The translations under genes were made by a program, and so were the position numbers. A stretch of DNA of 51,765 bases from Chloroflexota bacterium (GTDB lineage: Bacteria; Chloroflexota; Dehalococcoidia; GIF9; UBA5629). The stretch spans positions 1-51,765 of the forward strand of contig VGNY01000002.1 in the NCBI GenBank assembly GCA_016865895.1. Direction: 5' to 3'. Positions 13,015-48,342 of this stretch are shown in pieces; the stretch's first letter is position 1; each line of letters starts with the position of its first letter. The notes under the pieces were generated by a model. The model was not told the DNA's origin. It saw only the letters and a program-made list of their open reading frames with translations, and did not search any database.

Positions 13015-13025
13015 GGAGGACTCGA

Positions 13026-20787: not shown

Positions 20788-20820
20788 AAAGGAGAAACCT
20801 CTCGGAAAGGCTTCTCCTTT
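20788..20820 (-). terminator. candidate hairpin terminator after the lipoprotein gene
   Basis: A 12-bp stem (AAAGGAGAAACC/GGCTTCTCCTTT, one wobble) with a 9-nt loop. Only a short U tract on the minus strand. Confidence 0.35.
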
Positions 20821-20866
20821 CCTTACTTCTTTCAGTCTATGTGTCCTCTCTCAGATGTACCCGTGT

Positions 20867-21934: not shown

Positions 21935-21955
21935 TATTCTGCCTCCTTCCTCCTC

Positions 21956-23227: not shown

Positions 23228-23309
23228 TTGCAGCCTTTCACCTCCTTCATTTTAGTCCCTCGCTTTTAAGTTTCAATTCATACAATGCCCATTATCACCC
23301 CCTTTCACG

Positions 23310-24581: not shown

Positions 24582-24617
24582 TTTCAACCTCCCCATATTT
24601 TTATTCCAGCTATGCCG

Positions 24618-25664: not shown

Positions 25665-25665
25665 G

Positions 25666-26550: not shown

Positions 26551-26575
26551 TTCTCCTCCTTCAACTCATCTTGTT

Positions 26576-28543: not shown

Positions 28544-28553
28544 TTACGCCCTC

Positions 28554-29339: not shown

Positions 29340-29392
29340 ATGAACTCAAACTCAGAGGAAACTATTAAGTGTAAACACCTAGTTTAGATAAT

Positions 29393-29470
29393 TATACAAT
29401 ACTTGTCAATAGTCTTATGGGAGATTTGCTAATCACCACTACTCATTACTACTATACAACATTTGTCAAA
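29393..29470. repeat. two 18-bp direct repeats TATACAAyAyTTGTCAAw, 60 bp apart
   Basis: Copies at 29393-29410 and 29453-29470 in the divergent intergenic region between livG and the acyl-CoA ligase. Confidence 0.6.
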
Positions 29471-29491
29471 ACCCAAACGTTGTGCTATAGT
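29463..29491 (+). promoter_or_regulatory. promoter TTGTCA-N17-(TGc)TATAGT for the ligase-livGF operon
   Basis: -35 at 29463-29468, extended -10 TGCTATAGT at 29483-29491, AGGAGG at 29510 and a GTG start at 29522. Confidence 0.5.
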
Positions 29492-29521
29492 CTTCATTCG
29501 AAGAAAAGTAGGAGGTAACAC

Positions 29522-31237: not shown

Positions 31238-31238
31238 A

Positions 31239-32009
31239 ATGATGCCTTTTTTTGAAGTGGAAGGGTTAACCAAACGCTTCGGTGGGCTGGTTGCTGTCGA
31301 AAATGTGAGCTTCAAAATAGAAAGAGATGAAATCGTTGGCCTCATCGGGCCTAATGGTGCCGGGAAGACCACACTCATACGGTGCATACTCGGTATATTG
31401 AACCCAGATTCTGGCAAAGTCAGATTTAAAGGCGAAGATATAACCAAACGCCGCCCCTGGGAAATTGTTCAGAAAGGAATAGTGGGGACTTTTCAGGTAG
31501 TCAAACCATTCCGTCACTTACCTATCATCGCCAATGTGATGGTAGGATGCCTCTGCCCCCGGATAACAAAGCGAGGCGAATGGGTCAAAAGAGCAGAAGT
31601 GAAAGCTCATGATGCGTTAGAGTTTGTCGGTATCGCTGACCTGGCTCTTGAACCAGCGTCTATCTTGTCTCACGGGGATTTAAAACGACTGGAGGTAGCC
31701 AGAGCAATTGCCACCGAACCAGAGCTGCTTATCCTCGATGAGCCCTTTGGCGGGTTAAATCCGGCAGAAACAGAGCTAGTAGCTAAATCTATGAAAAGGT
31801 TGCACAAAGGAGGAAGATTTGGCAGGCTGCATAGCGAAGGGCCAGCTATGCTTATTATCGAACATAAATTAAGCGAGCTTATGAAGATAGTTGACAGGGT
31901 GATTGTGCTGAACTTCGGCGAGGTTATCGCCCAGGGTACCCCTGAAGAAATATCCAAAAACCCCACAGTCATCGAAGCCTACACGGGCAAGGAGGTGCTC
32001 ATTGCTTGA
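31239..32009 (+). CDS. livG: Liv-type ABC ATP-binding protein (LivG-like)
   Basis: Walker A GPNGAGKTT and Walker B LLILDEPFGGL. The start lies 1 nt after the ligase stop. Confidence 0.9.
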   Translation: MMPFFEVEGLTKRFGGLVAVENVSFKIERDEIVGLIGPNGAGKTTLIRCILGILNPDSGKVRFKGEDITKRRPWEIVQKGIVGTFQVVKPFRHLPIIANVMVGCLCPRITKRGEWVKRAEVKAHDALEFVGIADLALEPASILSHGDLKRLEVARAIATEPELLILDEPFGGLNPAETELVAKSMKRLHKGGRFGRLHSEGPAMLIIEHKLSELMKIVDRVIVLNFGEVIAQGTPEEISKNPTVIEAYTGKEVLIA

Positions 32010-32751
32010 AGTAAAGAATGTTACCGTCTGTTACGACACAGCAATGGTTTTAGATGAAGCCAACCTGAAGGTTGAGAAAGGTGAATTGGTGGGGCTTGTC
32101 GGCCCCAACGGCGCTGGAAAAACCACACTGCTTCGTTCTATAGCCGGATTGATAAATTGGGAGAAGGAAATACTAAAGGGAACAAGACAGGCAGACATAA
32201 CCTTTAAAGGTAGTGTAGAATTTGAAGGCGAAAACATCGAAAAACTGTCGGCATCTGAAATAGCCAAGAGAGGCCTACTTCTTTGCCCCGAGAGAGGTAG
32301 ACCATTTGCCGAAATGACAGTCAAGGACAATTTGCTTGCCGGAGCCTTTCTGGTTAAGGATAAGAAGGTAGTCAACGATAGTCTCAACAAGGTCTACGAA
32401 TTGTTTCCTAGATTGAAGGAGAGGGAGAAGCAAGTGTCAGGTACACTATCCGGCGGTGAACGTCAAATGCTGGCTATTGGCAGAGCGCTGATGCGTAGAC
32501 CAAAGTTTATGTTAGTTGATGAGCCCTCGAGCGGGCTGGCACCAAGGCTGAAAGAGGACTTATTCAAACGTATAGAGGAGATTTATCACGAACTCGGAGT
32601 CACTATACTTTTAGCTGAGCAAGATGTCAGCTTCGCCTTCGACTTATCAGGTAGAAACTACGTCATGTCAAGGGGACACATAATTGCACAGGGAACATCT
32701 CAAGAGTTACTCAAAGACGAAACTATCAGGAAGACATATCTGGGCTTATAA
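32002..32751 (+). CDS. livF: Liv-type ABC ATP-binding protein (LivF-like)
   Basis: MLEVKNVTV (TTG start overlapping livG by 8 nt), GPNGAGKTT, LSGGERQM and FMLVDEPS. Confidence 0.9.
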   Translation: MLEVKNVTVCYDTAMVLDEANLKVEKGELVGLVGPNGAGKTTLLRSIAGLINWEKEILKGTRQADITFKGSVEFEGENIEKLSASEIAKRGLLLCPERGRPFAEMTVKDNLLAGAFLVKDKKVVNDSLNKVYELFPRLKEREKQVSGTLSGGERQMLAIGRALMRRPKFMLVDEPSSGLAPRLKEDLFKRIEEIYHELGVTILLAEQDVSFAFDLSGRNYVMSRGHIIAQGTSQELLKDETIRKTYLGL

Positions 32752-32775
32752 AGCGAGACCGTCTACTAATGTAGC

Positions 32776-32795
32776 GGCAAGGCTTCAGCCTCGCC
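32776..32795. terminator. short GC hairpin between convergent genes
   Basis: GGCAAGGC-TTCA-GCCTCGCC (7 of 8 bp paired) in the 84-nt convergent gap. No clear U tract. Confidence 0.3.
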
Positions 32796-32835
32796 AGTCC
32801 CGACCCTAAAGAGTCGCAACTACACTTTTAATTAT

Positions 32836-33873
32836 TTAGTACAAAGAGGCACCACAGGCTCTACAGGTATGGCGCAAGGACACATTAGCCAACTTGCAGC
32901 GGGGGCAGTTACGCTCGATTTTATCTCGTATCCAGACGGCAATCCCCTCAGGCATGAAAAGTAGAATCACTATTACGATAGCTGCAAAGATTAAAAACCG
33001 CAACTCAGGTATAACCCGCAAGAACTCCATAAGAGGATAGAGGATATAAACTCCGACAACTGCGCCGTAAATGCTAACAATACCTCCAAATACCGTCCAG
33101 ATTATCGCCTGGAAAGACAGCATCATGTCCAAGGTTGATGGCCCGGCAATTCTCATGAAATGAGCCAATAAACCGCCAGCAATGCCGGCAAAGAAACCAC
33201 CTATAGCAAAAGCCATCATCTTATATCGTATAGTGTTGATACCAGTAGCCCGGGCTGCAATCTCGTCCTCACGAATAGCATGGAGGATAATCCCTGTCCT
33301 GACCAGGGCACTCTTGGCATCAGTGAGCTTCCACATTATAAACACCGAGATAGTCATAACCACCAGACAAATATAGTAGTCAGCCATCCGAGAATCAGAA
33401 AGACGGGTGAGACCAGTAATACCATGTTCGCCGCCGGTAACATCGGGGAAAGCCTTGATGATCCCAAGAACGATAAGAGGAAAGGCTAAAGTGACTAGAG
33501 ACAGATAAGGCCCTCTTAGCCTCAATGCTGGCAAGCAGGTAACTACACCAGCCATCACAGCAACAAAGGCTCCGATAGGTATCGTCGCCCATGGTTGTAA
33601 ACCCAAGTATTTGTTCAGCATCGCTGCGGTATAAGCCGCAACCCCAAAGAAAAGAGCATGACCAAAGTTCACCTGGCCGGTATAGCCAGATAAAAAATCC
33701 CAGCTAACAGCGAAAATAACGAAAATATTGGTCAAGATAAGGGTACGTAAAATATAAGGCTCTTGTGTAAATAGAGGCATAAGAAAGATGAGGAGAAAGA
33801 AGATTAGCGCTATAAGCCTCCCAGGAATCGCCAGCACATCCCCCTGGAAATCCTTAAACAGTCGTCTTAACAC
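32836..33873 (-). CDS. livM: Liv-type ABC permease (LivM-like) with C-terminal zinc ribbon
   Basis: Polytopic LivM-like body. The last 25 aa are CPRCKLANVSLRHTCRACGASLY (CxxC-N10-CxxC). Confidence 0.9.
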   Translation of the reverse strand: MLRRLFKDFQGDVLAIPGRLIALIFFLLIFLMPLFTQEPYILRTLILTNIFVIFAVSWDFLSGYTGQVNFGHALFFGVAAYTAAMLNKYLGLQPWATIPIGAFVAVMAGVVTCLPALRLRGPYLSLVTLAFPLIVLGIIKAFPDVTGGEHGITGLTRLSDSRMADYYICLVVMTISVFIMWKLTDAKSALVRTGIILHAIREDEIAARATGINTIRYKMMAFAIGGFFAGIAGGLLAHFMRIAGPSTLDMMLSFQAIIWTVFGGIVSIYGAVVGVYILYPLMEFLRVIPELRFLIFAAIVIVILLFMPEGIAVWIRDKIERNCPRCKLANVSLRHTCRACGASLY

Positions 33874-34745
33874 TATAATCTCTCCTCTTCAAAAACTACA
33901 CCAAACAACCCCTCAGGCCTGACCACTAGTATTATCACCATAGCCAGCAAGGCGAATGCCCCCTTAAGAAACGCCCCCATAGGCATCAACAAAACAACTG
34001 ATGTCTCAACCAATGCAATGATGAAGGCCCCAATAAAGCTCCCCCTGATACTTCCCAACCCACCTAGCACAACAATCGCCATAATCATCACCAGCGGTGA
34101 TATCCACATATATGGATAAACAACCCATAACGGAGCCACAACGACTCCAGAAACCGCTGCCAGTGCTGTTGCTATGCCCATAGTCATCAAAAGTATTCTG
34201 GAAACATTTATTCCCATCAAATTTGCGATTTCAGTATCCTGGGCCGTAGCTCTAATGGCTATGCCCAATTTTGTCTTAGTTAAAAGTGCCCATACACAGA
34301 GAAGCGCAACTAAAACTATGCCTAACGACAATATCTGTTGATAAGTAATTCTGACACCTAATACTATCATGAATCCTGAGATAAGAGTCGGTGCTTCCCG
34401 AAAGTGAGCACCGAAGGCCAAAAGCATGAGCTCCTGAAAAACCATAGCTAATGCAATAGTTATTAATAGTACAATTGCATGATGTTCACGTATGCGGTCA
34501 ATAAACAATTTGTAGCTCAAAACCCCCACACCAGTGGTGACAACCAAAGACAAAATAATTGAAGAAATGGGGTCTAAACCAAGCTGATAACTGCAAAAAA
34601 ACATACCGTAGGCTGCCAGCATGAAAAACGCTGTGTGCGCCAGGTTTATCATCCGGGCTACACCGAAAATAAGAGAGAAACCGACAGCTAGCAGGGCATA
34701 CACCCCTCCTGTCATCAGCGTCTGAATTACAAATAACTGAATCAT
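33873..34745 (-). CDS. livH: Liv-type ABC permease (LivH-like)
   Basis: GGVYALLAVGFSLIFGVARMINLAHTAFFMLAAY. Overlaps livM by 1 nt. Confidence 0.9.
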   Translation of the reverse strand: MIQLFVIQTLMTGGVYALLAVGFSLIFGVARMINLAHTAFFMLAAYGMFFCSYQLGLDPISSIILSLVVTTGVGVLSYKLFIDRIREHHAIVLLITIALAMVFQELMLLAFGAHFREAPTLISGFMIVLGVRITYQQILSLGIVLVALLCVWALLTKTKLGIAIRATAQDTEIANLMGINVSRILLMTMGIATALAAVSGVVVAPLWVVYPYMWISPLVMIMAIVVLGGLGSIRGSFIGAFIIALVETSVVLLMPMGAFLKGAFALLAMVIILVVRPEGLFGVVFEEERL

Positions 34746-34789
34746 AGCCTTCCCAAACCGAATTTTATTTTAAAACTTGTTCGTCTTAT

Positions 34790-34824
34790 GGTGACCTCGG
34801 GCTATGAAGTAGCCCGAGGTCACC
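34790..34824 (-). promoter_or_regulatory. perfect 15-bp stem-loop between the binding-protein and permease genes
   Basis: GGTGACCTCGGGCTA-TGAAG-TAGCCCGAGGTCACC, 18 nt after the binding-protein stop. No U tract. Confidence 0.6.
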
Positions 34825-34841
34825 AAATAAACCTTCAACAG

Positions 34842-36647
34842 TTACTTTTTGAACTGCAAAGTATGAACTATCTCCGAGAACTTGGCTTCCTCATAAGGAA
34901 CAAGCAATTCCACGGTGCCTACCATAACCAGAATCCACTTATTATCCTTCTGCACACCCAAGGCAAAACCTTTGGCTCCAAACCCAGACAATGTTGTTTC
35001 AAACGCTGCCGTGGAGGCTTTAGTGCCATCTGCTAGAGCACTCTCTTTCTCAGAGAGAACTTTGAACCCTGAGCCACCAGCCGCCTCCAGTGATTTCTTG
35101 AGTGTTTCGGTGAAAGTAGCACCCTCATCAGCATCAACAAACAACACAGGAACCCGAGCCGGAGCTGCAGCGTAGAACAGGAGAGTTTCGGACGGTTGCT
35201 TTGCCCAATCCTTGGGATATTTGACAGAAAAGCCCAAGTCGGCATTGACGTACTCATTCATTGCGGGCTCTACCGGCTTAGTTGGTTCTGGCTTTTCCGC
35301 TGGCTTAGCGCCCTTAAACTTATCAATGACTTCCGGCGCTATCTTAAATGGGACAGTGCCTGGATACTCAAATTTCCAGTCGCCGTAGTCGTCAACTGCA
35401 CCATATTCTTTCTTGGGCCAGACGCCCTTCAGCTCTCCATCCTGCCATTGGGTACCAACTCCAGTGAGACGACCGGGGCCATAGACCAGGTCATGAGGAC
35501 ACTTTGGTGGACATGGTGATGAGCCTACCGGATAATATTCACTAGTTCCAGCAGTACCCGTGTATACCCGCTTTTCAATGACGGGAACAAGGACATCAGA
35601 ATCCAGGGTCTGCGCCTCTTCAAAGTTTAGTTTCGCGGTGAGAAGTGCATCATAGGTAGCCGCGGTATATGTTGGAAATTGGCCAGTACGTTTCTCAAAC
35701 TCATCGAAGAAAGGGATGGTCTTCTCAGTTATGGACACACCTTTAGCATATGTATTCAGGAAAATCTCATAGTTGCCTTTACCGCCAGTGGCCTCCCAGA
35801 AGCCTTTCTTCTGCCCCTCAACAATGATACCTACTGAGACAGCCGGTATCTTAAGTTCGCCGCGTTGCTTGGCATATGTGACGCCGACCGGGCCAGAGAA
35901 GGTGGTAAAGATAATATGAGGTTCCTTGGCGGCAATAGCAGTCAGCTCAGCAGTGACATCTGTGGCTGTATCCGAAGGTCTCCAGACACCGACTACTTCC
36001 ATACCCATCGCCGGTATCCGTGCCTGGGCAACCGCTACCATCGCTTCGGTCCATTCCAGTTTTTCAGCAATTATAGCCACCTTCGGCTTCTCTATACCTA
36101 GTTCCTGCTTCAAGACACCAGCGACCATTGCTAGCATCTTGAAGTCGCTCGTAACCAAGAATATCTCATTATATGGGGTGACCTTGAAGAAGTACTTGTA
36201 GCGGTCATAATCGTCGGCTACTCGTTTCTGGAGCGCCACGGTGGCAGCACCACAATTGAGGAAAATCTTTTTGTAGTCCATAGCTACATCTGACATCGGA
36301 AACACAGCTTCTGTCCTGAAGCCGCCCATAAGCAAGTCCACCTTATCCACGGTGATGGCTCGCTCCACTGCAGATGCGGCACCAGCTACGTCAAGGATTT
36401 CATTGCTGTCCACCTTGACCAACTTAATAGTGTAGTTTTTATCGCCTATTTTCACGCCGCCGGCTTTATTAATTTCTTCGGCTGCCATGGTAGCACCCAT
36501 CCAGTGGTGCTCACCCTGCATAAACTGCATTGGACCCACGACTGCAACCTTGATAACATTTTCTTCCTTAGCTTTAGGAGCGCAAGCTGGAATAGCTAAC
36601 GCCACCAGCAAAAGACACGTAAGAAATAGGAAAAGATACTTTCTCAT
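34842..36647 (-). CDS. Liv-type substrate-binding lipoprotein fused to a C-terminal PsbP/DcrB-like module
   Basis: Lipobox IPACAP. A LivK-like body (VIKVAVVGPMQF...EEINKAGGVKIGDKNY) of ~440 aa, a Pro/Lys/Glu linker, then the 134-aa module shared with 20867-21271. Confidence 0.85.
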   Translation of the reverse strand: MRKYLFLFLTCLLLVALAIPACAPKAKEENVIKVAVVGPMQFMQGEHHWMGATMAAEEINKAGGVKIGDKNYTIKLVKVDSNEILDVAGAASAVERAITVDKVDLLMGGFRTEAVFPMSDVAMDYKKIFLNCGAATVALQKRVADDYDRYKYFFKVTPYNEIFLVTSDFKMLAMVAGVLKQELGIEKPKVAIIAEKLEWTEAMVAVAQARIPAMGMEVVGVWRPSDTATDVTAELTAIAAKEPHIIFTTFSGPVGVTYAKQRGELKIPAVSVGIIVEGQKKGFWEATGGKGNYEIFLNTYAKGVSITEKTIPFFDEFEKRTGQFPTYTAATYDALLTAKLNFEEAQTLDSDVLVPVIEKRVYTGTAGTSEYYPVGSSPCPPKCPHDLVYGPGRLTGVGTQWQDGELKGVWPKKEYGAVDDYGDWKFEYPGTVPFKIAPEVIDKFKGAKPAEKPEPTKPVEPAMNEYVNADLGFSVKYPKDWAKQPSETLLFYAAAPARVPVLFVDADEGATFTETLKKSLEAAGGSGFKVLSEKESALADGTKASTAAFETTLSGFGAKGFALGVQKDNKWILVMVGTVELLVPYEEAKFSEIVHTLQFKK

Positions 36648-36876: not shown

Positions 36877-38010
36877 TTAGAGTCCTAATTCAGCAGCTAT
36901 TTTTTCTCGGTGTGAGTCAACATCTCCAGCAGTAAACTCCGCTGCTTTGACACGACGGTAGTATAGTCCTATATCGTGGTCCCAGGTAAAGCCAATAGCT
37001 CCGTGTGCCGTAATTCCATCAATGCAAATCTTCTCATAAGCCTCACTTGCCTTAGCTTTGGCTACGGAAATCTGCAGCTGAGACGGTTTGCCTTCGCTTA
37101 TGCCGCAGGCCGCCTGGTAAACAAGATATTGAATCGCTTCCACATCTATAAGCATATCAGCCAGTTTTTGCTGGACTGCCTGGAAAGACCCAATAGGTCG
37201 GTCGAACTGAATCCGCTCCTTGGCGTAGGCGCTAGTCATATCAAGGACAGCCTGACAAGCGCCTGCAATCTCAGCACATTTCAAGACAGCGGCTCTTTGC
37301 AAAATAAAGTCCACTACTTCCCATCCTTTGCCTGCATCTCCCAAGATGTCATTCTTGGATACCTTAACTTTATCGAAAATCACCTGGAACTGCCTGTCTC
37401 CTGCCATAGTGGGTATTTTTTCTATTCTAAGCGCTGGAGATTTGGCATCAACTATGAATATTGTGATACCTGTCTGAGGTGTTTTGCCTTTGCCCGACCT
37501 CGCTACGACGAGGATGTAATTGGCTACATGGGTATCGGAGACAAAAATTTTCTCACCTTCCAGCACATAATCATCACCATCTGAGTGAGCGCTGAGGCTT
37601 ATCTCCGAAGCTTCATAACTAGCTGATGGTTCCATCAAAGCCAAAGTCCAAATAGTCTCACCCCTAGCTATTTGGGGCAAGAACTTAGATTTCTGTTCAG
37701 TTGTGCCGAATTCCAAAATGGGTAAGGCGCAGAGGGCAATAGTGGAAAAGAAAGGGCTTGGTACGATGTTTCTTCCCATCTCCTCCATCAAAACTACCAG
37801 ATCAACAAAATTGGCTTCCGTTCCACCATGCTCCTCTGGGAGGACAAGCCCCATCCACCCCAGTTCCGCCATGCTACGCCACATCTTAGGGTCATAACCC
37901 TTTTCGTCTTTATCCAGCTCTCTTACTTTAGACTTGGGACATTCGTTAGCCAGAAAATCTCTTGCCATGGTCCGGAGCATTTCTTGTTCTTCTGTAAAAC
38001 CAAAGTCCAC
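36877..38010 (-). CDS. acyl-CoA dehydrogenase-fold protein, beta-type
   Basis: Collinear paralog of 17435-18565 (MDFGFTEEQEMLRTMARDFL...). LQRAAVLKC and FTAGDVDSHRE lack both known catalytic Glu positions. Confidence 0.85.
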   Translation of the reverse strand: MDFGFTEEQEMLRTMARDFLANECPKSKVRELDKDEKGYDPKMWRSMAELGWMGLVLPEEHGGTEANFVDLVVLMEEMGRNIVPSPFFSTIALCALPILEFGTTEQKSKFLPQIARGETIWTLALMEPSASYEASEISLSAHSDGDDYVLEGEKIFVSDTHVANYILVVARSGKGKTPQTGITIFIVDAKSPALRIEKIPTMAGDRQFQVIFDKVKVSKNDILGDAGKGWEVVDFILQRAAVLKCAEIAGACQAVLDMTSAYAKERIQFDRPIGSFQAVQQKLADMLIDVEAIQYLVYQAACGISEGKPSQLQISVAKAKASEAYEKICIDGITAHGAIGFTWDHDIGLYYRRVKAAEFTAGDVDSHREKIAAELGL

Positions 38011-38126: not shown

Positions 38127-39329
38127 TTAGTATGATTTGGGCAAACCTAATCTAAACTGGGCTATAATGCTTTTCTCTACCTCGGCAGTACCAGCAGCAA
38201 TCATATTACCAGGGAAGCCAAGATAGGCACCCTGAATGGCCCCATTTAGCCTGGCCCATTTTGAATCCGGATCAACTTGAGAGTAGACTCCTAATATCTC
38301 TGCTCCGGAAATAGCTAAACGCCTAAGGACGTCATCGCCCATAATCTTATTCCTCGAGGATTCATAGGCGGGTATTGCACCCTGAGTCACCCTCCAAGTA
38401 AACTGGTAGGCAAACAGTTTAACTACCTCCACGTCTATAGCCATCTCAGCCAACCTGTGGCGGACAGCAGGGATTTGGTTCAAAGACTTACCTTCGCGCT
38501 GAGTCTTTTTGGCATAATCAACCAGGATTTCCAACAATCTCTTGGAACTTCCATATGCTAGTGGTGCCACACTGCGTCTCTCGAATGCAAGCGCCTGCAT
38601 CAGATGATACCATCCCTTATTCTCCTCACCAACCAGATTGGATGCCAGAACCCTAACATTATCAAAAAATACCTCATTAAAGTGATGCCGACCATAATAG
38701 TTTAATATGGGGTTAACTGTGACTCCCGGACTCTTCATGTCCACAATGAAAAGGCTGAGCCCGCGGTGTTTCTTTGCAGCAGTGGCATCCGTTCTGGTCA
38801 AGAGCCAGCACCATCGTGAATGCTGGGCCTTGCTAGTCCATACTTTTTGGCCATTAATAACGTAATGCTCTCCATCTCTTACAGCTCGGGTTTGCAGGTT
38901 AGCAAGGTCAGAACCTGCGTTGGGCTCACTATAGCCCGTGCACCAGACACCATCTCGTTCCCCAGCGGCAATAAGTGGCAGGTATTTCCTCTTTTGTTCC
39001 TCCGTGCCGAATAGCATAAGGCAGGGCCCGACCCATTGCGTGCCACTTATACCCATCCACGCCCCTGGTATTCCCCAATATGCTATCTCCATCTCATACA
39101 CTGTTTGTTCCATTAAAGAAGCACCCTGACCCCCATATTCCTTCGGCCAGCTCATAACCAGCCATCCCTTCTGAGCTAGCTTCTTAGACATGGATATTTC
39201 AAATTCAAAGTCTCTGTATTCCTGGTCAATCAGATGAGTGCCAACAAAATCCTCAGGCAACTCTTTTTTGGCGAATTTGGCAATGTCCTCTATCAGAGTT
39301 TTCTCTTTTTCACCAAGTTTGAAATCCAT
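38127..39329 (-). CDS. acyl-CoA dehydrogenase, alpha-type
   Basis: GYSEPNAGSDLANLQTRA and LAFERRS (IVD-like Glu position). 400 aa, like the two alpha-type copies at 14962 and 16188. Confidence 0.9.
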   Translation of the reverse strand: MDFKLGEKEKTLIEDIAKFAKKELPEDFVGTHLIDQEYRDFEFEISMSKKLAQKGWLVMSWPKEYGGQGASLMEQTVYEMEIAYWGIPGAWMGISGTQWVGPCLMLFGTEEQKRKYLPLIAAGERDGVWCTGYSEPNAGSDLANLQTRAVRDGEHYVINGQKVWTSKAQHSRWCWLLTRTDATAAKKHRGLSLFIVDMKSPGVTVNPILNYYGRHHFNEVFFDNVRVLASNLVGEENKGWYHLMQALAFERRSVAPLAYGSSKRLLEILVDYAKKTQREGKSLNQIPAVRHRLAEMAIDVEVVKLFAYQFTWRVTQGAIPAYESSRNKIMGDDVLRRLAISGAEILGVYSQVDPDSKWARLNGAIQGAYLGFPGNMIAAGTAEVEKSIIAQFRLGLPKSY

Positions 39330-40566: not shown

Positions 40567-41346
40567 TTACATGTACATGCCAGAAGAAACGTTCAGCGTC
40601 TGGCCAGTAATAAAGGCAGCATCATCCGAAGCTAGAAACAGAACAGGCTTGGCCGCATCTTCAGGTGTCATCGGTTTAACCTGCAAAAGAACCATATCCC
40701 TGACCTTCTTGGGTATCCCAACCAGTTCTCCACCCACTTCTTCTTGCTGCGCCTCTTTTTCTCTAGTCAACCGAGTATCAACGAAACCATAAGCAACGAC
40801 ATTACAGGTGATGCCAAATCTTCCCCATTCCCTGGCTACGGTTTTGGTGAGACCGATGAGACCTGCTTTAGCAGCAGCATAGTTTATCTGCCCCACATTG
40901 CCCATTAGTCCAGCCACCGAGGCCACGTTGATTATTCTGCCGTTATGTCCTTCCTTCATCATATATTGTGAAGCAGCTCTAATGCAGTTAAAGGTTCCTT
41001 TAAGGCTAATATCAACACATAAATCCCATTGGGCATCAGTCATCTTATGTATTAAGGCATCACGGGTAAGTCCGGCATTATTGACCAGGATATCAATCTT
41101 GCCGAATTTCTGTGCCGCCATGTCCATCACCTTCTGGCAATCCTCCAGCTTGGTCACATCGCCAGCATAAGCTTCAGCCTTGCCTCCAGCAGCTTTTATC
41201 TTCTTAACCACTTCCTTCAGTGGGGCTTCATCAATATCGCTCACCAAAACAGCCGCACCCTCCTTGGCAAACAGTAGGGCATCAGCCTCACCTATACCCC
41301 GTGCTGCCCCAGTAATAACAGCTACTTTTCCATCTAGTTTTCCCAT
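40567..41346 (-). CDS. FabG-like short-chain dehydrogenase/reductase
   Basis: GKVAVITGAARGIG, NNAG and the YAAAK catalytic motif. Confidence 0.85.
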   Translation of the reverse strand: MGKLDGKVAVITGAARGIGEADALLFAKEGAAVLVSDIDEAPLKEVVKKIKAAGGKAEAYAGDVTKLEDCQKVMDMAAQKFGKIDILVNNAGLTRDALIHKMTDAQWDLCVDISLKGTFNCIRAASQYMMKEGHNGRIINVASVAGLMGNVGQINYAAAKAGLIGLTKTVAREWGRFGITCNVVAYGFVDTRLTREKEAQQEEVGGELVGIPKKVRDMVLLQVKPMTPEDAAKPVLFLASDDAAFITGQTLNVSSGMYM

Positions 41347-41468: not shown

Positions 41469-41939
41469 CTATTTCTTACCCCGTGATGGTAAGGCAACCA
41501 AGGCTGCACCAGGTGTCGTTTTATCTCCTTTTCCATTCTCCACCCAAATCTCGCACTCAACAAGATGCTCACCACTTTCCTCATATTTCTTGGTCACCTT
41601 GCCCTTGCACCACCATGTTTCACCGTCATGTGGCTCTTCCATGGTTTTCATCTTCCGTGGGTAGTCCATGCCACGATACTGGCATGACAACTTTTTGAGC
41701 ACCCCCTGCTCACCAATCCAGTCAGTCATCAGTTGGCCTAGCCAGGCACGTTTAAGAGCACCATGCACGATAGGAGCACCCACACCCATAGCTTTGGCAA
41801 AATCGTCTTCGTAATGCAAAGGGTTAAAATCTCCCGAGGCCCCCGCCCATTGAACTAACATCCGCGATGTAGCAATTTTAGCCACCGGGGTTATTTCGGT
41901 TCCTGCATCAACGTCTTCATAATAAAGTTGTTTAGCCAT
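41469..41939 (-). CDS. MaoC-like (R)-specific enoyl-CoA hydratase, catalytic subunit
   Basis: Hydratase-2 motif GASGDFNPLHYEDDFA in a hot-dog-sized protein. Confidence 0.85.
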   Translation of the reverse strand: MAKQLYYEDVDAGTEITPVAKIATSRMLVQWAGASGDFNPLHYEDDFAKAMGVGAPIVHGALKRAWLGQLMTDWIGEQGVLKKLSCQYRGMDYPRKMKTMEEPHDGETWWCKGKVTKKYEESGEHLVECEIWVENGKGDKTTPGAALVALPSRGKK

Positions 41940-41974: not shown

Positions 41975-42448
41975 TTAAAACTGGATCAAAGTGGAACGGC
42001 TCTTCAGCGCCACCTTTTTCTTCTGGTTAACAAAAGTGGTCTCGACTGTGGTGAACATAGTCTTACCCATTTTTGTTTCTCGCTCAGTTATGCTAGCAAT
42101 CTTAGTCGTAGCAGTTAGCACATCTCCAGCGCCGATAGGCTCAAGAAATTCAAATTCAACACCGCCATCGAGGAGCCGAGTTGGCGCCCCAGCTTTAATA
42201 AGCGAATCAACGAGTTTGAAGACAGAAATCCCACCTTTGATTGGCCAGCCGGTGAAGCCTGGAGGGCAAATCAACCTGCCATATTTGTTTTTACTGGCAT
42301 TCTCTATATCGTTGAATAAAGGATTGGGGTCGCCTATAGCCTGTGCATACCTCTGGATTGCCCCTTCTTCAACCTTGAAAGTAATTGGCTCTCCAGAAAC
42401 ACCTATTAGTTTTTTCAACTCATCTGTAATTATGGACCCTTCAGCCAT
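41975..42448 (-). CDS. MaoC N-terminal-like hot-dog protein, non-catalytic partner
   Basis: IQRYAQAIGDPNPLFNDIE has Phe where the catalytic His sits. Adjacent to the catalytic MaoC gene. Confidence 0.8.
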   Translation of the reverse strand: MAEGSIITDELKKLIGVSGEPITFKVEEGAIQRYAQAIGDPNPLFNDIENASKNKYGRLICPPGFTGWPIKGGISVFKLVDSLIKAGAPTRLLDGGVEFEFLEPIGAGDVLTATTKIASITERETKMGKTMFTTVETTFVNQKKKVALKSRSTLIQF

Positions 42449-42478: not shown

Positions 42479-43681
42479 TTACAGCCCTACGATAGCGACA
42501 CTGACAATATTCATCGCCGGGAAGCCGCCCATATTATGGGTGAGACCCAGTTTGGGATTCTTTAGCTGGCGCTCTGGCAGCTGAGCTTTACCCTGCAACT
42601 GTTTGTACATTTCGTATAGCATTCTTAAACCAGAGGCACCAATCGGATGACCAAAACATTTCAACCCACCATCAGGCTGAATAGGTTGCTCGCCGTCAAG
42701 ATTGAAACGGCCAGCCTCAATGTCTTCTTTAACCTTCCCTCTGGGACTGAACTGCAAATCCTCCATTGTCACTGCTTCAGTAATTGAAAAACAGTCGTGC
42801 ACCTCAGCCATACTTATTTCCTTGCGCGGATTCTTAATACCAGCCTCTTTATAAGCCAGTACTCCAGCACGGTATCCAGTCTCAACATGAGCACCATCCC
42901 ACTTGGTATACATCAGCTCCTCACCCGAGCTCAAGGCTATTTGGAGAGCCTTAACGTACACAGGGTCAGGCCTGAATTTCTTAGCCATATCAGCTCGAGT
43001 AACAATAGCCGCCGCTGAACCATCACTGACTCCACAGCAATCGAAAAGCCCCAGCGGCCAGGCGATGATAGGGGCATTAACCACCTGCTCTTCGGTCACT
43101 TCGCGGCGCAGGTGTGCCTTCGGATTCCTGGCTCCATTGTAATGACTTTTTGCTGATACTTTAGCCAGCATCTTTTTGCCCTCATCTGGGCTAAGTCCAT
43201 ACACAGCAAAATATCTCGTAGCCATCATGGCAAAAGCCCCGGGAGCGGTCACTTTAGGCATGAGAAGTGCATTTTTTGTTCCCATAAGACCAGGACCACT
43301 GGGAAGACCACCATACCCGGTATCCTTGAGCTTTTCTACCCCCACAGCCAACACAATATCGTAAGCTCCCGAAGCCACTGCATAACAGGCACCCCTGAAA
43401 GCTTCTGTAGCAGTCGCACAGAAATTTTCTGTTCTTGTGACCGGGATAAAAGGCAACTTAAGCGTTAATGCCAAAGCCGTGGCCCCCTTACCTACACTCT
43501 GTTCCTCAAAATGCACACCAAACCATGCTGCCTGAAGGTCTTTTTTCTCTACCCCTGCATCTTCAATACATTCTTGAAATGCGTCAACCATCAAGTCCTC
43601 AGCGCTTTTATCCCACAGCTCCCCAAACTTGGTACAACCCATCCCTATAATAGCTACCTTGTCTTTAATACCTTCTGCCAT
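42479..43681 (-). CDS. SCPx/archaeal-type thiolase with canonical active site
   Basis: MAEGIKDKVAIIGMGCTKFGELWDKS start after GGAGG (the 30-codon track extension would overlap the upstream gene). NFCATATEAF Cys and CFGHPIGASG His. Confidence 0.9.
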   Translation of the reverse strand: MAEGIKDKVAIIGMGCTKFGELWDKSAEDLMVDAFQECIEDAGVEKKDLQAAWFGVHFEEQSVGKGATALALTLKLPFIPVTRTENFCATATEAFRGACYAVASGAYDIVLAVGVEKLKDTGYGGLPSGPGLMGTKNALLMPKVTAPGAFAMMATRYFAVYGLSPDEGKKMLAKVSAKSHYNGARNPKAHLRREVTEEQVVNAPIIAWPLGLFDCCGVSDGSAAAIVTRADMAKKFRPDPVYVKALQIALSSGEELMYTKWDGAHVETGYRAGVLAYKEAGIKNPRKEISMAEVHDCFSITEAVTMEDLQFSPRGKVKEDIEAGRFNLDGEQPIQPDGGLKCFGHPIGASGLRMLYEMYKQLQGKAQLPERQLKNPKLGLTHNMGGFPAMNIVSVAIVGL

Positions 43682-43715
43682 TTTTGTTCCTCCGTAGTTA
43701 TTTATTTTTATAGTA

Positions 43716-45158
43716 TTAGGTGCGCACCGGCGTTGCCTTCCAAGAATAGCCGTAAACACCAGTGGGTTCATCCAAATATCTTCTGCGGAAGGTCATTTCC
43801 ACTGGCATACCTACCTTAACTGAGTCGAGGTCACAATCCGTAAAGTCAAACCAGAATCTGCCTCCTCCTTCAAAATCCACGAATCCGTATATTGACGGTG
43901 GGTCAATACTTGCAGCCAAATTATCACCAGTGTAAGTAAACACAGTGCCCTTTTTATCGGAAAAACGATAGTCTTCCATCTGGTCAACGGCTCCGCAATC
44001 AGGATTTACACACACTCTCTGGGGTGGGTATTGTGGTGTGCCACACTCTTTACACCTAGTTCCACAAAGCGACAGAATCGCTTTCCGCTCTCTGAACAGT
44101 GCAGACATGGGAGTGCGAATACCTATCTCACCACGCATGCCTATCTCCATTGGAGCCAGGTTGCGGAAGGCAAGATACTTCTCATAGCTAGCGAGTTCCT
44201 TTTTTAAAGCCAAGTGCTTCTTCACCCCACGTCTATCTCCAACCTTTTTAATGTTTTCAGTCACCTGGAAGAACAAGGCATCGCTGCCATTGCCAAAGCT
44301 GGCGACCAAAATCTTGTCTCCAGGCTTGGCATCTTCAAGTGCAGCCACTAATATCATCAAAGGCGAAACCGCACCCGTATCACCCACCTTATCCAACAAC
44401 GTATCTTGAATCTGGCTCGGCTCAGCACCCAGTCGTTTAATTATAGCGGCATGTTCTCTAGCATAAATGCCAGGAAATGCAATTTTGGCAAAGTCCTTAA
44501 TGTTCAAGTTATATTTCTTCAGCAGTCCTGAAATTGCTTCGGGTATCATTTTTGCATAGCCCTCGTCGCGGATAAACCTGTCTTCCCAGGCGTGTTCAAA
44601 TTCTTCGCCAGTTGCCTTCCAGCGGTCAGGAAAATCATACGAAACTGAATTGAAACCCTCAAAAGTAGCAATCACCTCTTCATCTCCCAACAGAATTGCT
44701 GCGGCACCATCGCCATAAAGATGTTCCTGTGGTCCACCGGGCTTGCTTAACCGACAGTCAGAAACACAGACCAGAATATTGCTTGAAGACCCTCCTTTTA
44801 CAGCATCACAAGCAGAAATGATAGCACCTGTGCCCGCTTTGGTAGAACCAATGAAGTCAGCAGTCCTTATATTAGGTTGAAGGTCGAGAGAAACAGCTAC
44901 TATTGCCGAATTCTGCCTCAGCATATATGGCTGACTGGTGGTAGCAAGAAATAAGCCGTCTATCTCTTCTCGCTTCAAGCCGTCTATGCAGTCAATCCCA
45001 GCAGCTACCGCCATGCTCAGCGTATCTTCATCATGATTGGCAACTGACTTCTCACCCGGCGTGGGAAATGTTCCCAGAAAACCTACTGCTCCGAAGATAG
45101 TATTGTGGTTCATTCGATAACGTGGAATGTAAGCTCCATATGACTTAATACCTACCAT
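43716..45158 (-). CDS. HMG-CoA-synthase-like domain fused to DUF35 Zn-ribbon/OB domain
   Basis: MVGIKSYGAYIPRYR...NHDEDTLSMAV is collinear with archaeal HMGCS. The C-terminal ~130 aa has CKECGTPQYPPQRVCVNPDCG plus an OB fold. AGGAGG RBS. Confidence 0.8.
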   Translation of the reverse strand: MVGIKSYGAYIPRYRMNHNTIFGAVGFLGTFPTPGEKSVANHDEDTLSMAVAAGIDCIDGLKREEIDGLFLATTSQPYMLRQNSAIVAVSLDLQPNIRTADFIGSTKAGTGAIISACDAVKGGSSSNILVCVSDCRLSKPGGPQEHLYGDGAAAILLGDEEVIATFEGFNSVSYDFPDRWKATGEEFEHAWEDRFIRDEGYAKMIPEAISGLLKKYNLNIKDFAKIAFPGIYAREHAAIIKRLGAEPSQIQDTLLDKVGDTGAVSPLMILVAALEDAKPGDKILVASFGNGSDALFFQVTENIKKVGDRRGVKKHLALKKELASYEKYLAFRNLAPMEIGMRGEIGIRTPMSALFRERKAILSLCGTRCKECGTPQYPPQRVCVNPDCGAVDQMEDYRFSDKKGTVFTYTGDNLAASIDPPSIYGFVDFEGGGRFWFDFTDCDLDSVKVGMPVEMTFRRRYLDEPTGVYGYSWKATPVRT

Positions 45159-45198: not shown

Positions 45199-45227
45199 AA
45201 TATAACACAGACTTTAATCTCTGTCAA
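45199..45227 (-). promoter_or_regulatory. promoter TTGACA-N17-TATATT for the HMGCS-like/thiolase operon
   Basis: Minus strand: -35 at 45222-45227 and -10 at 45199-45204, with an exact 17-nt spacer. About 35 nt upstream of the start codon. Confidence 0.5.
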
Positions 45228-45314
45228 ACTTTTGTACTCGTCCAGTACATTAGTGACACATTAGTTTTGATTCTGAGACCAGAAGGATAGGCTTCCATCT
45301 CTGCTTATTTTACC

Positions 45315-45588: not shown

Positions 45589-45617
45589 TTGACAAATAAG
45601 ACCGGCCGCTTTACAAT
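45589..45617 (+). promoter_or_regulatory. promoter TTGACA-N17-TACAAT for the MarR operon
   Basis: -35 at 45589-45594 and -10 at 45612-45617, with an exact 17-nt spacer. Confidence 0.55.
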
Positions 45618-45639: not shown

Positions 45640-45658
45640 AATTATAGGAGTGCCAGCT

Positions 45659-46081
45659 ATGTACGACGCTAGAAAACATATCTGCTTCAACCTTGGTCGT
45701 GTGATGCGACGTGTATACGACTACTACGAGAAGCGACTATCGCCATTCGGCCTGACTCCCCCACAGTACTTTGTATTCAACGCTTTATGGATGGGCGACG
45801 GCATCACTATCGGTGAGCTTGGAGACAGAGTTTCCCTCGACAGTTCGACACTTACCGGCATTATCGACAGGATGGAGAAGAATGACTATGTAGAACGTAA
45901 GCCAAACCCAGATGATAGAAGGTCAGCATTAGTATTCCTCACTGAAAAAGCAAAAGAACTGGGGCCTAGTATTTTGGAGTTCGCTGATGAGTTAGACACG
46001 ACCTTAAAACAGCCATTCTCCAAAAAAGACATGGCTACCTTTGAAAAGGTTCTCAGGGCTTTAGGTGAAACAAGCACTTAA
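45659..46081 (+). CDS. MarR-family transcriptional regulator
   Basis: LTPPQYFVFNALW...ITIGELGDRVSLDSSTLTGIIDRMEKNDYVERKPNPDDRR winged helix. The ATG 8 nt after AGGAG is preferred over the GTG at 45650. Confidence 0.85.
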   Translation: MYDARKHICFNLGRVMRRVYDYYEKRLSPFGLTPPQYFVFNALWMGDGITIGELGDRVSLDSSTLTGIIDRMEKNDYVERKPNPDDRRSALVFLTEKAKELGPSILEFADELDTTLKQPFSKKDMATFEKVLRALGETST

Positions 46082-46144: not shown

Positions 46145-47086
46145 ATGAAAAGAACTAAATTGTGCGAATTGTTAGGAATCGAGCACCCTATCATCCTGGG
46201 CGCGATGGGAGGTATCTCCACTGGCAAATTGGCCGCATCTGTATCCAACGCAGGTGCGCTCGGCTCAGTAGCCACAGCCTTTATTTCTATTGAAGAAGCT
46301 CGACGTGAAATTCAAGAATGCAAGCGCTTTACTAACAAACCATTTGCGGTCAATTGCCCGCTTTTCAGACCAGATGTCAACGAAATGCTGGATATCATAA
46401 TTGAAGAGGGCGTTAGTATAATATCAACGTCGGCAGGCAGCCCAGATAGATGGGCAGAAAAAATCAAAGGCTTAGGAGCAAAATGGCTGCATGTAGTATC
46501 TAATGTAAGAGGAGCAGTAAGAGCAGCCGCTACCGGGGTAGATGTAGTCATCGCTGAAGGTACCGAATCAGGTGGAATCGCCTCCAGAGACGAGGTCACC
46601 ACCATGGTACTAATACCCCAAGTTGTCGACGCGGTGAAAGTGCCGGTCGTGGCAGCAGGTGGTATAGCTGATGCTCGAGGTTTCCTAGCTGCCCTGGCTT
46701 TGGGTGCCCAAGGAGTGCAGATAGGTACCGCTTTCTTGACTACCAAAGAATGCGACCGAATAAGCGATACTTACAAACAGGTGCTTCTCAACGCCTCAGA
46801 CACCGCCACCGGGCTAGCTACTCGCAAAGCGTACCCTGTAAGGATAATTAAGAACAAACTCTTCGACACTCTTCAGCATCTGGATGAAGAAGGTAAGTCG
46901 CGAGAGGAAATACAAATGATGCTGGCTCCAAAGATGATTAACCTGTCCCAGGAGAACGACCCTGAAAACGGGTTGTATGTTACAGGGCAAGTGGCAGGAC
47001 TAATCCATGAGATAAAGACGGTGAAGGAACTGATTGAAGGCATCGTCACAGAATCTGAGAAGCTTTATCATAGTCTGGCAGGTTAG
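46145..47086 (+). CDS. NMO/FabK-like FMN-dependent oxidoreductase (nitronate monooxygenase family)
   Basis: LLGIEHPIILGAMGGIS...ASVSNAGALGS and AAGGIADARG...GAQGVQIGTAFL. Confidence 0.8.
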   Translation: MKRTKLCELLGIEHPIILGAMGGISTGKLAASVSNAGALGSVATAFISIEEARREIQECKRFTNKPFAVNCPLFRPDVNEMLDIIIEEGVSIISTSAGSPDRWAEKIKGLGAKWLHVVSNVRGAVRAAATGVDVVIAEGTESGGIASRDEVTTMVLIPQVVDAVKVPVVAAGGIADARGFLAALALGAQGVQIGTAFLTTKECDRISDTYKQVLLNASDTATGLATRKAYPVRIIKNKLFDTLQHLDEEGKSREEIQMMLAPKMINLSQENDPENGLYVTGQVAGLIHEIKTVKELIEGIVTESEKLYHSLAG

Positions 47087-47151
47087 GTCTCTTGTAAGGC
47101 ACAGTCACGCGACCCTATATATAAAGGTAAGGAAAAAAGGAGGAAATTAAA

Positions 47152-48342
47152 ATGTCCAAGCCCAGAAAGCAAAAGGGGAAAACTGATATAGCCGAGCGAG
47201 AGATTTATCAGCATTTTATGGCCTGGCTCAAGCAGACATGGTGGGGATTACCCGAGACAGATTATACACTGCCTTTGATAAGAGCCCAGTACACTCCAGA
47301 AGAAGCATCTATCCTTACCGGTATGCCATTTTCGGGCAAAAGCCTCGAGGAACTGGCTGAAATAAAACAGAAAGACCCTGCCGAACTACGCAACCGTCTT
47401 GATGCAATGGCAAGAAAGGGCCTCGTTTTCCGCACAGTGAGAGGGGACACCGTACGCTACAGACTTAATGACTTCTTCTTCATCGGGCGCACAGCCTTCT
47501 GGCCCGGTCACAGAGACAAGTTAAGCAAAACCTTGGCACCACTGCACAATCAGCATTACTACCATGGCGGTTTTGAACAGTACAAGCATACACAAGCAAA
47601 AGGACTGCGAGTGCTACCCATTCAAGAAACAATCGAGGACACCAAACAGGTCTTGCCTTACGAAGAGGTAATCAAAGTGCTGGATTCCCAAGATTATTTT
47701 GTGGTCACCATTTGTCCTTGTAAGCACCGTAAAAATCTTGACCCTGACTTCCCCAACTGTGAGTATCCCACCGAGGTCTGTCTTCATTTCGGCACGCTCG
47801 GCCACTATATCGTGGAAAATGGTATGGGTCGCGAGATAACACAGCAGGAAACCGAAGACATACTACGCCAGTGCGCTGAAGTCGGATTAGTTCATGCAAT
47901 AGATAACCAACAGGAGAGACCAGACACCATCTGCAATTGCTGCAAGTGCTGCTGCATATGGTTCGAGGCATTCCATAAGCTGAAGCATTCTATGAGCCTG
48001 ACCCCGTCCAACTACCACATCCACACCAACTCGCAGACCTGCATCGGCTGCGGCTTATGCGTCAAGCGCTGCCCTATGGAATCGCTCCACCTGGAAGATT
48101 TTCCAGAAGCTAGAGGTAGGGTCACGATAGTGACTGAAGGGAAAGAACTGAAGAATAAAACTGGCAAAGTATCCGCAGCCAATATTGACTTCTGCATCGG
48201 CTGCGGCGTGTGTGCCTACAAATGCCCTACAAAGTCGCTGGTGCTGGAACGCCGTGAGGTTACCCATCATCCGCCTATGACCGGACGGGATTATATTATG
48301 CAGTACATGAGCGACTTGCAGGCTGCCAAAACACAGCTTTGA
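47152..48342 (+). CDS. Cys-rich iron-sulfur protein with C-terminal 2x[4Fe-4S] ferredoxin domain
   Basis: CIGCGLCVKRCP and CIGCGVCAYKCP, plus upstream CPCKHRK, C..C and CNCCKCCC clusters. The N-terminal ~170 aa is unassigned. Confidence 0.7.
   Translation: MSKPRKQKGKTDIAEREIYQHFMAWLKQTWWGLPETDYTLPLIRAQYTPEEASILTGMPFSGKSLEELAEIKQKDPAELRNRLDAMARKGLVFRTVRGDTVRYRLNDFFFIGRTAFWPGHRDKLSKTLAPLHNQHYYHGGFEQYKHTQAKGLRVLPIQETIEDTKQVLPYEEVIKVLDSQDYFVVTICPCKHRKNLDPDFPNCEYPTEVCLHFGTLGHYIVENGMGREITQQETEDILRQCAEVGLVHAIDNQQERPDTICNCCKCCCIWFEAFHKLKHSMSLTPSNYHIHTNSQTCIGCGLCVKRCPMESLHLEDFPEARGRVTIVTEGKELKNKTGKVSAANIDFCIGCGVCAYKCPTKSLVLERREVTHHPPMTGRDYIMQYMSDLQAAKTQL

Follow-up and report, generated by a model that had tools for sequence, protein, structure and literature searches.

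What can a protein built like 3-hydroxy-3-methylglutaryl-coenzyme A (CoA) synthase (HMGS) do when its catalytic Cys appears to be missing and an intact thiolase is encoded beside it? This question is raised by a 51,765-nucleotide stretch of DNA from an uncultured Dehalococcoidia bacterium of the Chloroflexota (contig VGNY01000002.1 of assembly GCA_016865895.1, positions 1 to 51,765; hereafter the window), in which the first gene of a minus-strand operon encodes an HMGS-like domain fused to a DUF35 domain and the second gene encodes the thiolase (Table 1). We consider it likely that the fusion protein is a pseudoenzyme partner in a hetero-oligomeric degradative thiolase catalysing the last step of (R)-specific beta-oxidation.

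An earlier note on this DNA, made from the sequence alone, had described the 480-amino-acid (aa) protein as starting like an archaeal HMGS and ending in a DUF35 domain, so that two of the three parts of an archaeal complex would be covalently fused, and Pfam, NCBIfam and PDB alignments agree with this description. In phmmer searches against the PDB, aa 2-333 matched the HMGS chain of Methanothermococcus thermolithotrophicus (6esq_I, 125 bits) and aa 355-478 matched the separate DUF35 chain of the same organism (6esq_E, 61.6 bits), the two aligning consecutively; as the archaeal parts comprise 349 and 130 aa against 480 aa here, the fusion is a simple end-to-end join. PhlA was also near by sequence (121 bits). 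Pfam assigned ACP_syn_III_C to aa 213-291, zf-ChsH2 to aa 364-390 and OB_ChsH2_C to aa 401-458, the latter two being what was formerly DUF35, and a weak NCBIfam match to BbsA covers aa 364-457. The NCBIfam model for archaeal HMGS (NF003274) scored 223 bits over aa 1-334 and did not reach its cutoff of 244, and the protein also stayed under other HMGS cutoffs (TIGR00748, 143 < 353; TIGR01835, 58 < 360). An AlphaFold2 model built from a 52-sequence alignment had a mean predicted local distance difference test score (pLDDT) of 87.7 and a predicted template modelling (TM) score of 0.90, with pLDDT dipping only at the linker (59-71 over residues 331-350). The top Foldseek matches of this model in the PDB were PhlA (9skh, 5mg5), archaeal HMGS (6et9_I, 6esq_I) and MucA (9vbo), with target TM scores of 0.86-0.88 for PhlA and archaeal HMGS and root-mean-square deviations of 2.6-3.0 Å for the latter, and bacterial MvaS and FabH ranked behind these three.

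The catalytic residues were read from the phmmer alignment to 6esq_I, using the E-C-H-N tetrad concept and the archaeal residue numbering of a recent study (Nat Commun 2026;17:2196, PMC12960953). By this alignment, the HMGS-like domain lacks the entire tetrad and not merely the Cys: the Glu of archaeal GSE(82)SHPY is replaced by Thr74 (ATT(74)SQPY), the Cys of LEFAC(114)KAGT by Thr106 (FIGST(106)KAGT), the His of vfH(238)QPN by Pro229 (afP(229)GIY) and the Asn of GN(270)T by Asp260 (GD(260)T). The Thr that the earlier note had placed by eye at the nucleophile position was thus recovered, Thr106 pairing with Cys114 of 6esq_I, and the Glu and His, which it had left to be checked, turned out to be lost as well, together with the Asn.

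The loss extends to the homologues, which were compared in three sets: 66 from contigs at one genome per species, 134 full-length representatives of clusters at the 50% level, and another 237 homologues with 46-100% identity. Not one of these more than 400 proteins has a Cys at the nucleophile column. Among the 66 genome homologues the column is occupied by Thr (30), Leu (10), Ala (7), Ser (6), Asn (6), Pro (3), Val (2) and Ile (1); among the 134 representatives by Leu (80), Gln (13), Thr (8), Met, Pro and Arg (6 each) and others, making Leu the family-wide majority; and among the 237 further homologues by Thr (89), Ile (45), Leu (32), Asn (30), Val (16), Ala (15) and others. Glu was absent from column 74 in all three sets (Thr in 117/134 representatives), and His was found at column 229 in a single representative (1/134; 0/66 and 0/237 in the other sets). 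Even in orthologues at least 76% identical and encoded in the same operon, position 106 is Thr, Ile, Leu, Asn, Val or Ala, and because the residue varies so freely among close relatives the position is not catalytic. Thr106 is rejected as a substitute nucleophile on this ground, and with such drift in the column the Thr, of which the earlier note had spoken as a variant, is neither special nor defining. A Cys one residue upstream (GCTKSGT) occurs in 3/66 homologues; this Cys does not line up with the nucleophile, and two of the three proteins are second tandem copies.

Other parts of the protein are kept. The K/R-x-G-T motif that follows the lost Cys is mostly retained among both the 66 genome homologues and the 134 representatives, and the four Zn-ribbon Cys (369, 372, 383 and 388) are invariant in the former (66/66) and present in about 95-98% of the latter. 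The ratio of nonsynonymous to synonymous substitution rates (dN/dS), computed against the two least-saturated relatives, was 0.06-0.07 for the HMGS-like part, 0.07-0.08 for DUF35 and about 0.03 for the thiolase. The dead HMGS-like domain is nonetheless under strong purifying selection.

The neighbouring thiolase has kept its active site, in line with the intact Cys and His reported in the earlier note. It is an SCP2-type 3-ketoacyl-CoA thiolase that exceeds the NCBIfam cutoff of NF004810 (630 bits, cutoff 403) and retains Cys88 (NFCAT), H295-D-C-F298 and G344-H-P346; the Cys, the HDCF and the GHP are unchanged in 61/61 orthologues. Its best PDB match is 6esq_A, the complex-forming archaeal acetoacetyl-CoA thiolase (ACAT), at 205 bits; BbsB scored 131.6 bits and PhlC about 90 bits.

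The fusion is real and widespread. A search of 5.8 billion proteins returned more than 4,000 matches, the best 120 of which are nearly all 480 aa long and 76-100% identical to the window protein. When the 50%-identity representatives were searched exhaustively, 650 matched at E ≤ 1e-30, and the complete architecture of about 465-495 aa was present in 134 of the best 150, at identities down to 33%. An identical fusion protein is also encoded on independent contigs, and the thiolase gene carries its own GGAGG ribosome-binding site within the 34-bp spacer that follows the fusion stop codon. A frameshift or an assembly artefact joining two genes, which the earlier note had named as a possible flaw, is ruled out by these thousands of homologues, the independent contigs and the ribosome-binding site.

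The order fusion-then-thiolase is kept wherever downstream DNA is present (66 species-level loci and further loci), and the pair spans Dehalococcoidia, Deltaproteobacteria, Hadarchaeota, Syntropharchaeia, Firmicutes, Variovorax and Rhodococcus. None came from Pseudomonas among the matches of the one-genome-per-species contig scan and the profile search, which were mostly Chloroflexi. Homologues from cultured organisms were found by tblastn against plasmids: fused proteins of Variovorax, Sphingomonas, Azoarcus and Rhodococcus have 33-41% identity and share every motif, the Variovorax and Rhodococcus copies combining dead HMGS positions with intact thiolase motifs. In two Chloroflexi metagenome-assembled genomes (MAGs) from Lake Tanganyika, the fusion-thiolase pair is present in tandem, with two copies per locus (L035 838-9213 and L036 402-8773); these fusions are 67-68% identical to the window fusion, and the second copy has GCTKSGT.

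In the window the pair leads a set of genes that together would make up a beta-oxidation cycle (Table 1). Among the 66 loci, those of Dehalococcoidia, several Deltaproteobacteria and two Bacillaceae also contain the hydratase pair, a short-chain dehydrogenase (SDR) and the acyl-CoA dehydrogenase (ACAD) genes. Elsewhere the surroundings vary. On a Variovorax megaplasmid the order is SDR, MaoC, fusion, thiolase, ACAD and CoA-transferase; on a Rhodococcus megaplasmid, enoyl-CoA hydratases, an AMP-ligase and a ring-hydroxylating dioxygenase precede the fusion, which is followed by the thiolase, an enoyl-CoA hydratase and an ACAD. A 50%-identical relative has 3HCDH, crotonase, ACAD and CoA-transferase genes as neighbours, and in the Syntropharchaeia copy the pair stands alone. 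As the pair thus occurs in varied beta-oxidation gene sets, the constant unit is the fusion together with the thiolase. No mevalonate-pathway genes were detected by Pfam annotation among the open reading frames (ORFs) of at least 120 aa in the window, as the earlier note had observed, and the same annotation revealed no polyketide synthase (PKS) or non-ribosomal peptide synthetase (NRPS) genes nearby. The evidence likewise favours the view expressed there that a biosynthetic role is unlikely.

Table 1. Positions of the fusion gene, its domains, the operon genes and the predicted regulatory elements in the window
Feature	Position	Strand	Remarks
Fusion gene	43716..45158	(-)	480 aa, begins MVGIKSYGAYIPRYR; stop codon 43716-43718
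HMGS-like domain, aa 1-334	44157..45158	(-)	tetrad columns now T74, T106 (codon 44841-44843), P229, D260
Linker, aa 335-360	44079..44156	(-)	between 6esq_I and 6esq_E matches; lower model confidence
DUF35 domain, aa 361-480	43719..44078	(-)	Zn ribbon C369, C372, C383, C388 and OB fold
SCP2-type 3-ketoacyl-CoA thiolase, 400 aa	42479..43681	(-)	starts MAEGIKDK at 43681
Hot-dog hydratase subunit 1, HadA/FAS1-DH-like	41975..42448	(-)	Pfam FAS1_DH_region; NCBIfam HadA, fused HadA/HadB; syntenic in relatives
Hot-dog hydratase subunit 2, MaoC/HadB-like	41469..41939	(-)	Pfam MaoC_dehydratas; HadB in PDB; syntenic in relatives
SDR1, classical FabG-like short-chain dehydrogenase	40567..41346	(-)	syntenic in most close relatives
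SDR2, MFE-2-type (3R)-hydroxyacyl-CoA dehydrogenase, 310 aa	39546..40478	(-)	PDB 2et6 (346 bits), 1zbq, 1gz6
Acyl-CoA dehydrogenase, PimC-like large subunit	38127..39329	(-)	syntenic in relatives
Acyl-CoA dehydrogenase, PimD-like small subunit	36877..38010	(-)	syntenic in relatives
Predicted sigma-70-like promoter	45199..45227	(-)	TTGACA-17-TATATT, extended TG; 11/12 consensus; pattern match only
Imperfect inverted repeat, candidate MarR operator	45228..45254		11-nt arms, 82% complementary; abuts -35; pattern match
MarR-family regulator, divergent	45650..46081	(+)	Pfam MarR

The closest published system is a complex of Pseudomonas fluorescens (PfACAT/HMGS-DUF35), and the arrangement of a fused, tetrad-less HMGS-DUF35 protein with a thiolase was thus already published in January 2026 (PMC12960953). 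Among the 1,030 bacterial HMGS/ACAT/DUF35 loci mined in that study, PKS or NRPS genes were absent from 1,001. In the P. fluorescens complex, the HMGS is fused to DUF35 and lacks E-C-H-N, and the ACAT retains Cys, HDxF and GHx; the complex makes neither HMG-CoA nor acetoacetyl-CoA and cleaves acetoacetyl-CoA, an activity nearly abolished by H294Y in the HDxF motif (PMC12960953). The authors called their complex an "evolutionary intermediate" and assigned no pathway (PMC12960953). Compared with the published description of these proteins, the window pair has every sequence-level feature of the P. fluorescens type, namely the fusion, the lost tetrad, the Cys, HDxF and GHx of the thiolase and the absence of PKS/NRPS neighbours. 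It differs in that it comes from an uncultured Dehalococcoidia/Chloroflexi lineage and leads a conserved (R)-specific beta-oxidation operon. The conserved operon context, the purifying selection and the wide spread argue against an "evolutionary intermediate" without a pathway.

All three parts of the archaeal ACAT/HMGS/DUF35 complex are homologous to the window pair and provide its best or near-best PDB matches, and the archaeal thiolase shares HDxF and GHx. However, the archaeal complex consists of three separate polypeptides with an active HMGS (E82, C114, H238, N270) and is biosynthetic, channelling acetoacetyl-CoA towards mevalonate, whereas the window pair has a dead HMGS, a fused DUF35 and a catabolic context. 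Expressed on its own, the archaeal ACAT does not become soluble, and simultaneous replacement of all four tetrad residues of the archaeal HMGS eliminates HMG-CoA synthesis (PMC12960953). A tetrad-less HMGS-like subunit is also found in PhlACB of Pseudomonas protegens (5M3K/5MG5, 9SKH) and MucABC of Streptococcus (9VBO/9VBT), where PhlA, the top structural match of the fusion model (TM 0.86), and MucA are themselves non-catalytic and pair with a thiolase-like catalytic subunit and a DUF35 protein. In these systems, HDxF is lost from PhlC and MucB, and the interfacial CoA chamber is reported to be kept despite the missing tetrad (PMC12960953). PhlACB and MucABC differ further in that DUF35 is separate, the genes lie in PKS/NRPS clusters and small-molecule acceptors are acetylated; in the window, HDCF is present, DUF35 is fused and the context is beta-oxidation.

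Catabolic parallels are provided by BbsAB, ChsH2/Ltp2 and Shy/Sal, in which an SCP2-type thiolase-fold enzyme has a DUF35 Zn-ribbon/OB module as its obligatory partner, in beta-oxidation-like pathways that handle bulky substrates and include two-subunit ACADs and MaoC hydratases. The partner of DUF35 differs: ChsH2 and Shy are fusions to a MaoC hydratase and BbsA is DUF35 alone, while in the window DUF35 is fused to a dead HMGS. Moreover, Ltp2 and Sal are aldolases, whereas the window thiolase has the full thiolase motif set. It shares with the BbsAB type an SCP2-type thiolase with HDCF and a DUF35 partner, but not a partner consisting of DUF35 alone (about 130-150 aa). Finally, the peroxisomal MFE-2/SCPx system, which degrades 2-methyl-branched and bile-acid acyl-CoAs, likewise combines a (3R)-hydroxyacyl-CoA dehydrogenase, a MaoC-type hydratase 2 and an SCP2-type thiolase, with SCP2 domains found in some relatives of the fusion; this likeness is a functional analogy only, as the domain arrangement differs, and to our knowledge the eukaryotic system has no dead HMGS or DUF35 partner.

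From comparison with such systems we infer that the window pair forms a physical complex, that the fusion protein is its scaffold, and what class of substrate it acts on. All chemistry would reside in the SCP2-type thiolase, with Cys88 accepting the acyl group and HDCF and GHP assisting. By analogy with the archaeal complex, PhlACB and MucABC, the fusion protein would hold the thiolase dimer as a clamp, help the thiolase to stay soluble and properly shaped, and supply one wall of a shared CoA-binding chamber. The operon would encode a cycle running from the two-subunit ACAD over the two-subunit MaoC hydratase and the MFE-2-type dehydrogenase to the thiolase. The same enzyme set serves bulky or 2-methyl-branched acyl-CoAs in other organisms; judging by its enzyme types, the operon here may act on a bulky or branched acyl-CoA. 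Between the two roles that the earlier note had proposed for the fusion protein, the non-catalytic scaffold for the thiolase is favoured by the evidence and has experimental backing in a fused homologue from P. fluorescens (PMC12960953), and the lack of conservation at the former active site speaks against a different, non-covalent catalysis.

Several points weigh against a pseudoenzyme scaffold acting in this pathway. Thiolases of the BbsAB type manage with DUF35 alone, leaving the contribution of the large dead domain unexplained, and a dN/dS of about 0.06 over the whole 334-aa domain would also fit ligand binding or channelling beyond scaffolding. Some lineages pair the fusion and the thiolase with partners of the crotonase/3HCDH type rather than the MaoC/MFE-2 type, or have the pair alone. 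In addition, the fusion-thiolase complex is proposed by analogy, and the kinship with the P. fluorescens complex from shared motifs.

Natural fusions extend the architecture. P0122 (911 aa) consists of dead HMGS, DUF35, SDR and SCP2; six proteins from independent assemblies, NCBI MBW2615572.1 among them, make up its cluster, and its SDR portion is 48% identical to SDR2 of the window. P0125 (722 aa) joins dead HMGS-DUF35 to two SCP2 domains and P0157 (800 aa) joins it to an SDR. These proteins tie the pseudoenzyme functionally, and probably physically, to MFE-2-type dehydrogenases and lipid-carrier domains. P0196 (723 aa) has ATP-grasp and molybdopterin-binding segments instead and may be a chimeric gene call.

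The extended fusions raise the possibility, which we regard as tentative, that a beta-oxidation metabolon is organised around the dead HMGS-DUF35 protein, in which the old tunnel would bind CoA or acyl groups, the dehydrogenase (and in some species SCP2 lipid-carrier domains) would be recruited and 3-oxoacyl-CoA would be handed to the thiolase, as if the channelling complex of archaea worked towards degradation. Such a hub would be a non-exclusive extension of the scaffold role, and besides the fusions to SDR and SCP2 domains it is consistent with the low dN/dS across the entire dead domain, the mostly retained K/R-x-G-T motif and the CoA chamber kept in tetrad-less PhlACB and MucABC (PMC12960953). 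However, the binding and the interaction are predicted, the extended fusions are scarce (few of about 150 representatives), the old tetrad positions vary freely, and the pair is also found alone or with unrelated hydratase and dehydrogenase types. Slightly more doubtful is the specific version in which the protein organises a prokaryotic equivalent of peroxisomal MFE-2/SCPx, recruiting the (3R)-hydroxyacyl-CoA dehydrogenase and, in some lineages, SCP2 carriers, and passing 3-oxoacyl-CoA to the thiolase by way of the inherited shared CoA chamber. If true, anaerobic Chloroflexi and other uncultured lineages would have reused the archaeal mevalonate channelling machine in reverse for bulky or methyl-branched (e.g. 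isoprenoid- or steroid-like) acids, and the hub would be a catabolic device that is widespread and under selection and not an "evolutionary intermediate".

The remaining explanations give the fusion protein or the pair a chemistry of a different kind, or take the fusion for an artefact. That the HMGS-like domain is itself an enzyme with Cys-free chemistry (retro-aldol, hydratase-type, or non-covalent C-C cleavage or condensation), with Thr106 or other residues replacing the tetrad, has a precedent in the steroid aldolases Ltp2 and Sal, which are true thiolase-fold enzymes without the Cys, and would agree with the strong overall conservation of the domain; it is nevertheless improbable, as the four former catalytic positions are unconserved even at 76% identity and above within the same operon, no replacement set of invariant polar residues was identified, and the assayed P. 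fluorescens homologue showed only the activity of the thiolase itself, nearly lost on mutation of the thiolase (PMC12960953). We find it highly improbable that the pair is a Friedel-Crafts-type C-acyltransferase transferring acetyl to a small-molecule acceptor: few solved structures are closer in sequence and in fold than the tetrad-less PhlA, and MucA shares the loss (PMC12960953), but the window thiolase has the HDxF that PhlC and MucB have lost, scores far higher against archaeal ACAT than against PhlC, is accompanied by a fused and not a separate DUF35, and is encoded in a beta-oxidation context away from PKS or NRPS genes. A genuine if unusual HMGS for isoprenoid synthesis is suggested by the database names and the 223-bit match to NF003274, yet that score and the one for TIGR00748 lie under the curated cutoffs, the tetrad whose quadruple replacement kills archaeal HMG-CoA synthesis (PMC12960953) is absent, and the window holds no mevalonate-pathway genes; such an enzyme is hardly credible, and the same applies to a frameshift or assembly artefact, given the recurrence of the 480-aa architecture in thousands of independent sequences and the separate ribosome-binding site of the thiolase gene.

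These results bear directly on annotation. Members of the dead-HMGS family are widely labelled "hydroxymethylglutaryl-CoA synthase", "3-hydroxy-3-methylglutaryl CoA synthase" or "3-oxoacyl-ACP synthase III C-terminal domain protein". Thousands of "HMGS"-labelled proteins from Chloroflexi, Deltaproteobacteria, archaea and others cannot make HMG-CoA and are therefore no evidence for a mevalonate pathway, and such labels could yield false mevalonate calls in reconstructions from Chloroflexi, Hadarchaeota and Syntropharchaeia MAGs. The placement in beta-oxidation operons, the selection and the natural fusions argue for a functional pseudoenzyme subunit and not an evolutionary leftover, which would add one more thiolase-fold pseudoenzyme in the role of an obligatory partner and make bulky or branched acyl-CoAs a candidate substrate class for the abundant uncultured Dehalococcoidia. 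Beyond what was reported before (PMC12960953), the conserved operon and pathway context and the extended fusions are added here, and the main worth of the analysis lies in annotation correction and pathway context.

The predicted operon promoter lies about 40 bp upstream of the fusion start codon, and the closest relatives (L003, L006, L037 and L041) likewise have the MarR gene next to their operon. A near-consensus sigma-70-like promoter for marR, divergent from that of the operon, was found at 45589-45617 (pattern match only). Two genes come after marR (46145-48342, plus strand). One encodes a FabK-like FMN enoyl reductase of the NMO family, whose 297-bit match to TIGR03151 stays below cutoff; the product of the other has 396 aa and a 2x[4Fe-4S] domain (Fer4) at its C-terminus. 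The set MarR-NMO-Fer4 is conserved beside the operon in L001, L003 and L041, which are among the closest relatives; the NMO and Fer4 genes may belong to the same regulon as the fusion operon.

A second DUF35-associated set was found at 6972-9770 on the minus strand, comprising a DUF35 protein (6972-7436, 154 aa) and thiolase-like proteins at 7451-8617 and 8631-9770. The 388-aa protein has the nucleophile Cys, with YNPF replacing HDCF and NP replacing GHP, and the 379-aa protein lacks the Cys altogether. Judged by these motifs, the set looks like another pair of a catalytic and a pseudo thiolase with a free-standing DUF35, and it may resemble the actinobacterial Ltp3/Ltp4/DUF35 arrangement.

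Downstream of the ACAD genes of the operon lie genes of an ABC-type uptake system. The region 19721-36647 holds two or three ATP-binding cassette (ABC) uptake systems of the branched-chain-amino-acid type among and beside beta-oxidation genes, with four permeases, four ATPases and three Peripla_BP_6 binding proteins, one of which has an unusual length of 601 aa; acyl-CoA ligases of 571 and 655 aa are interleaved with the ABC genes, as is an ORF at 20867-21934 (355 aa) that had no Pfam match. On the plus strand, 10092-14699 encodes a biotin carboxylase (452 aa), a carboxyltransferase (523 aa), a crotonase-type enoyl-CoA hydratase and a beta-keto acid cleavage enzyme (BKACE), followed by three further ACADs, and a second BKACE is encoded nearby (18568-19488, minus strand). 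Speculatively, this cluster resembles a route of the methylcrotonyl- or geranyl-CoA-carboxylase type for 3-methyl-branched acyl-CoAs, with BKACE in place of the lyase; if so, the whole window may, equally speculatively, serve the degradation of branched (isoprenoid-like) acids.

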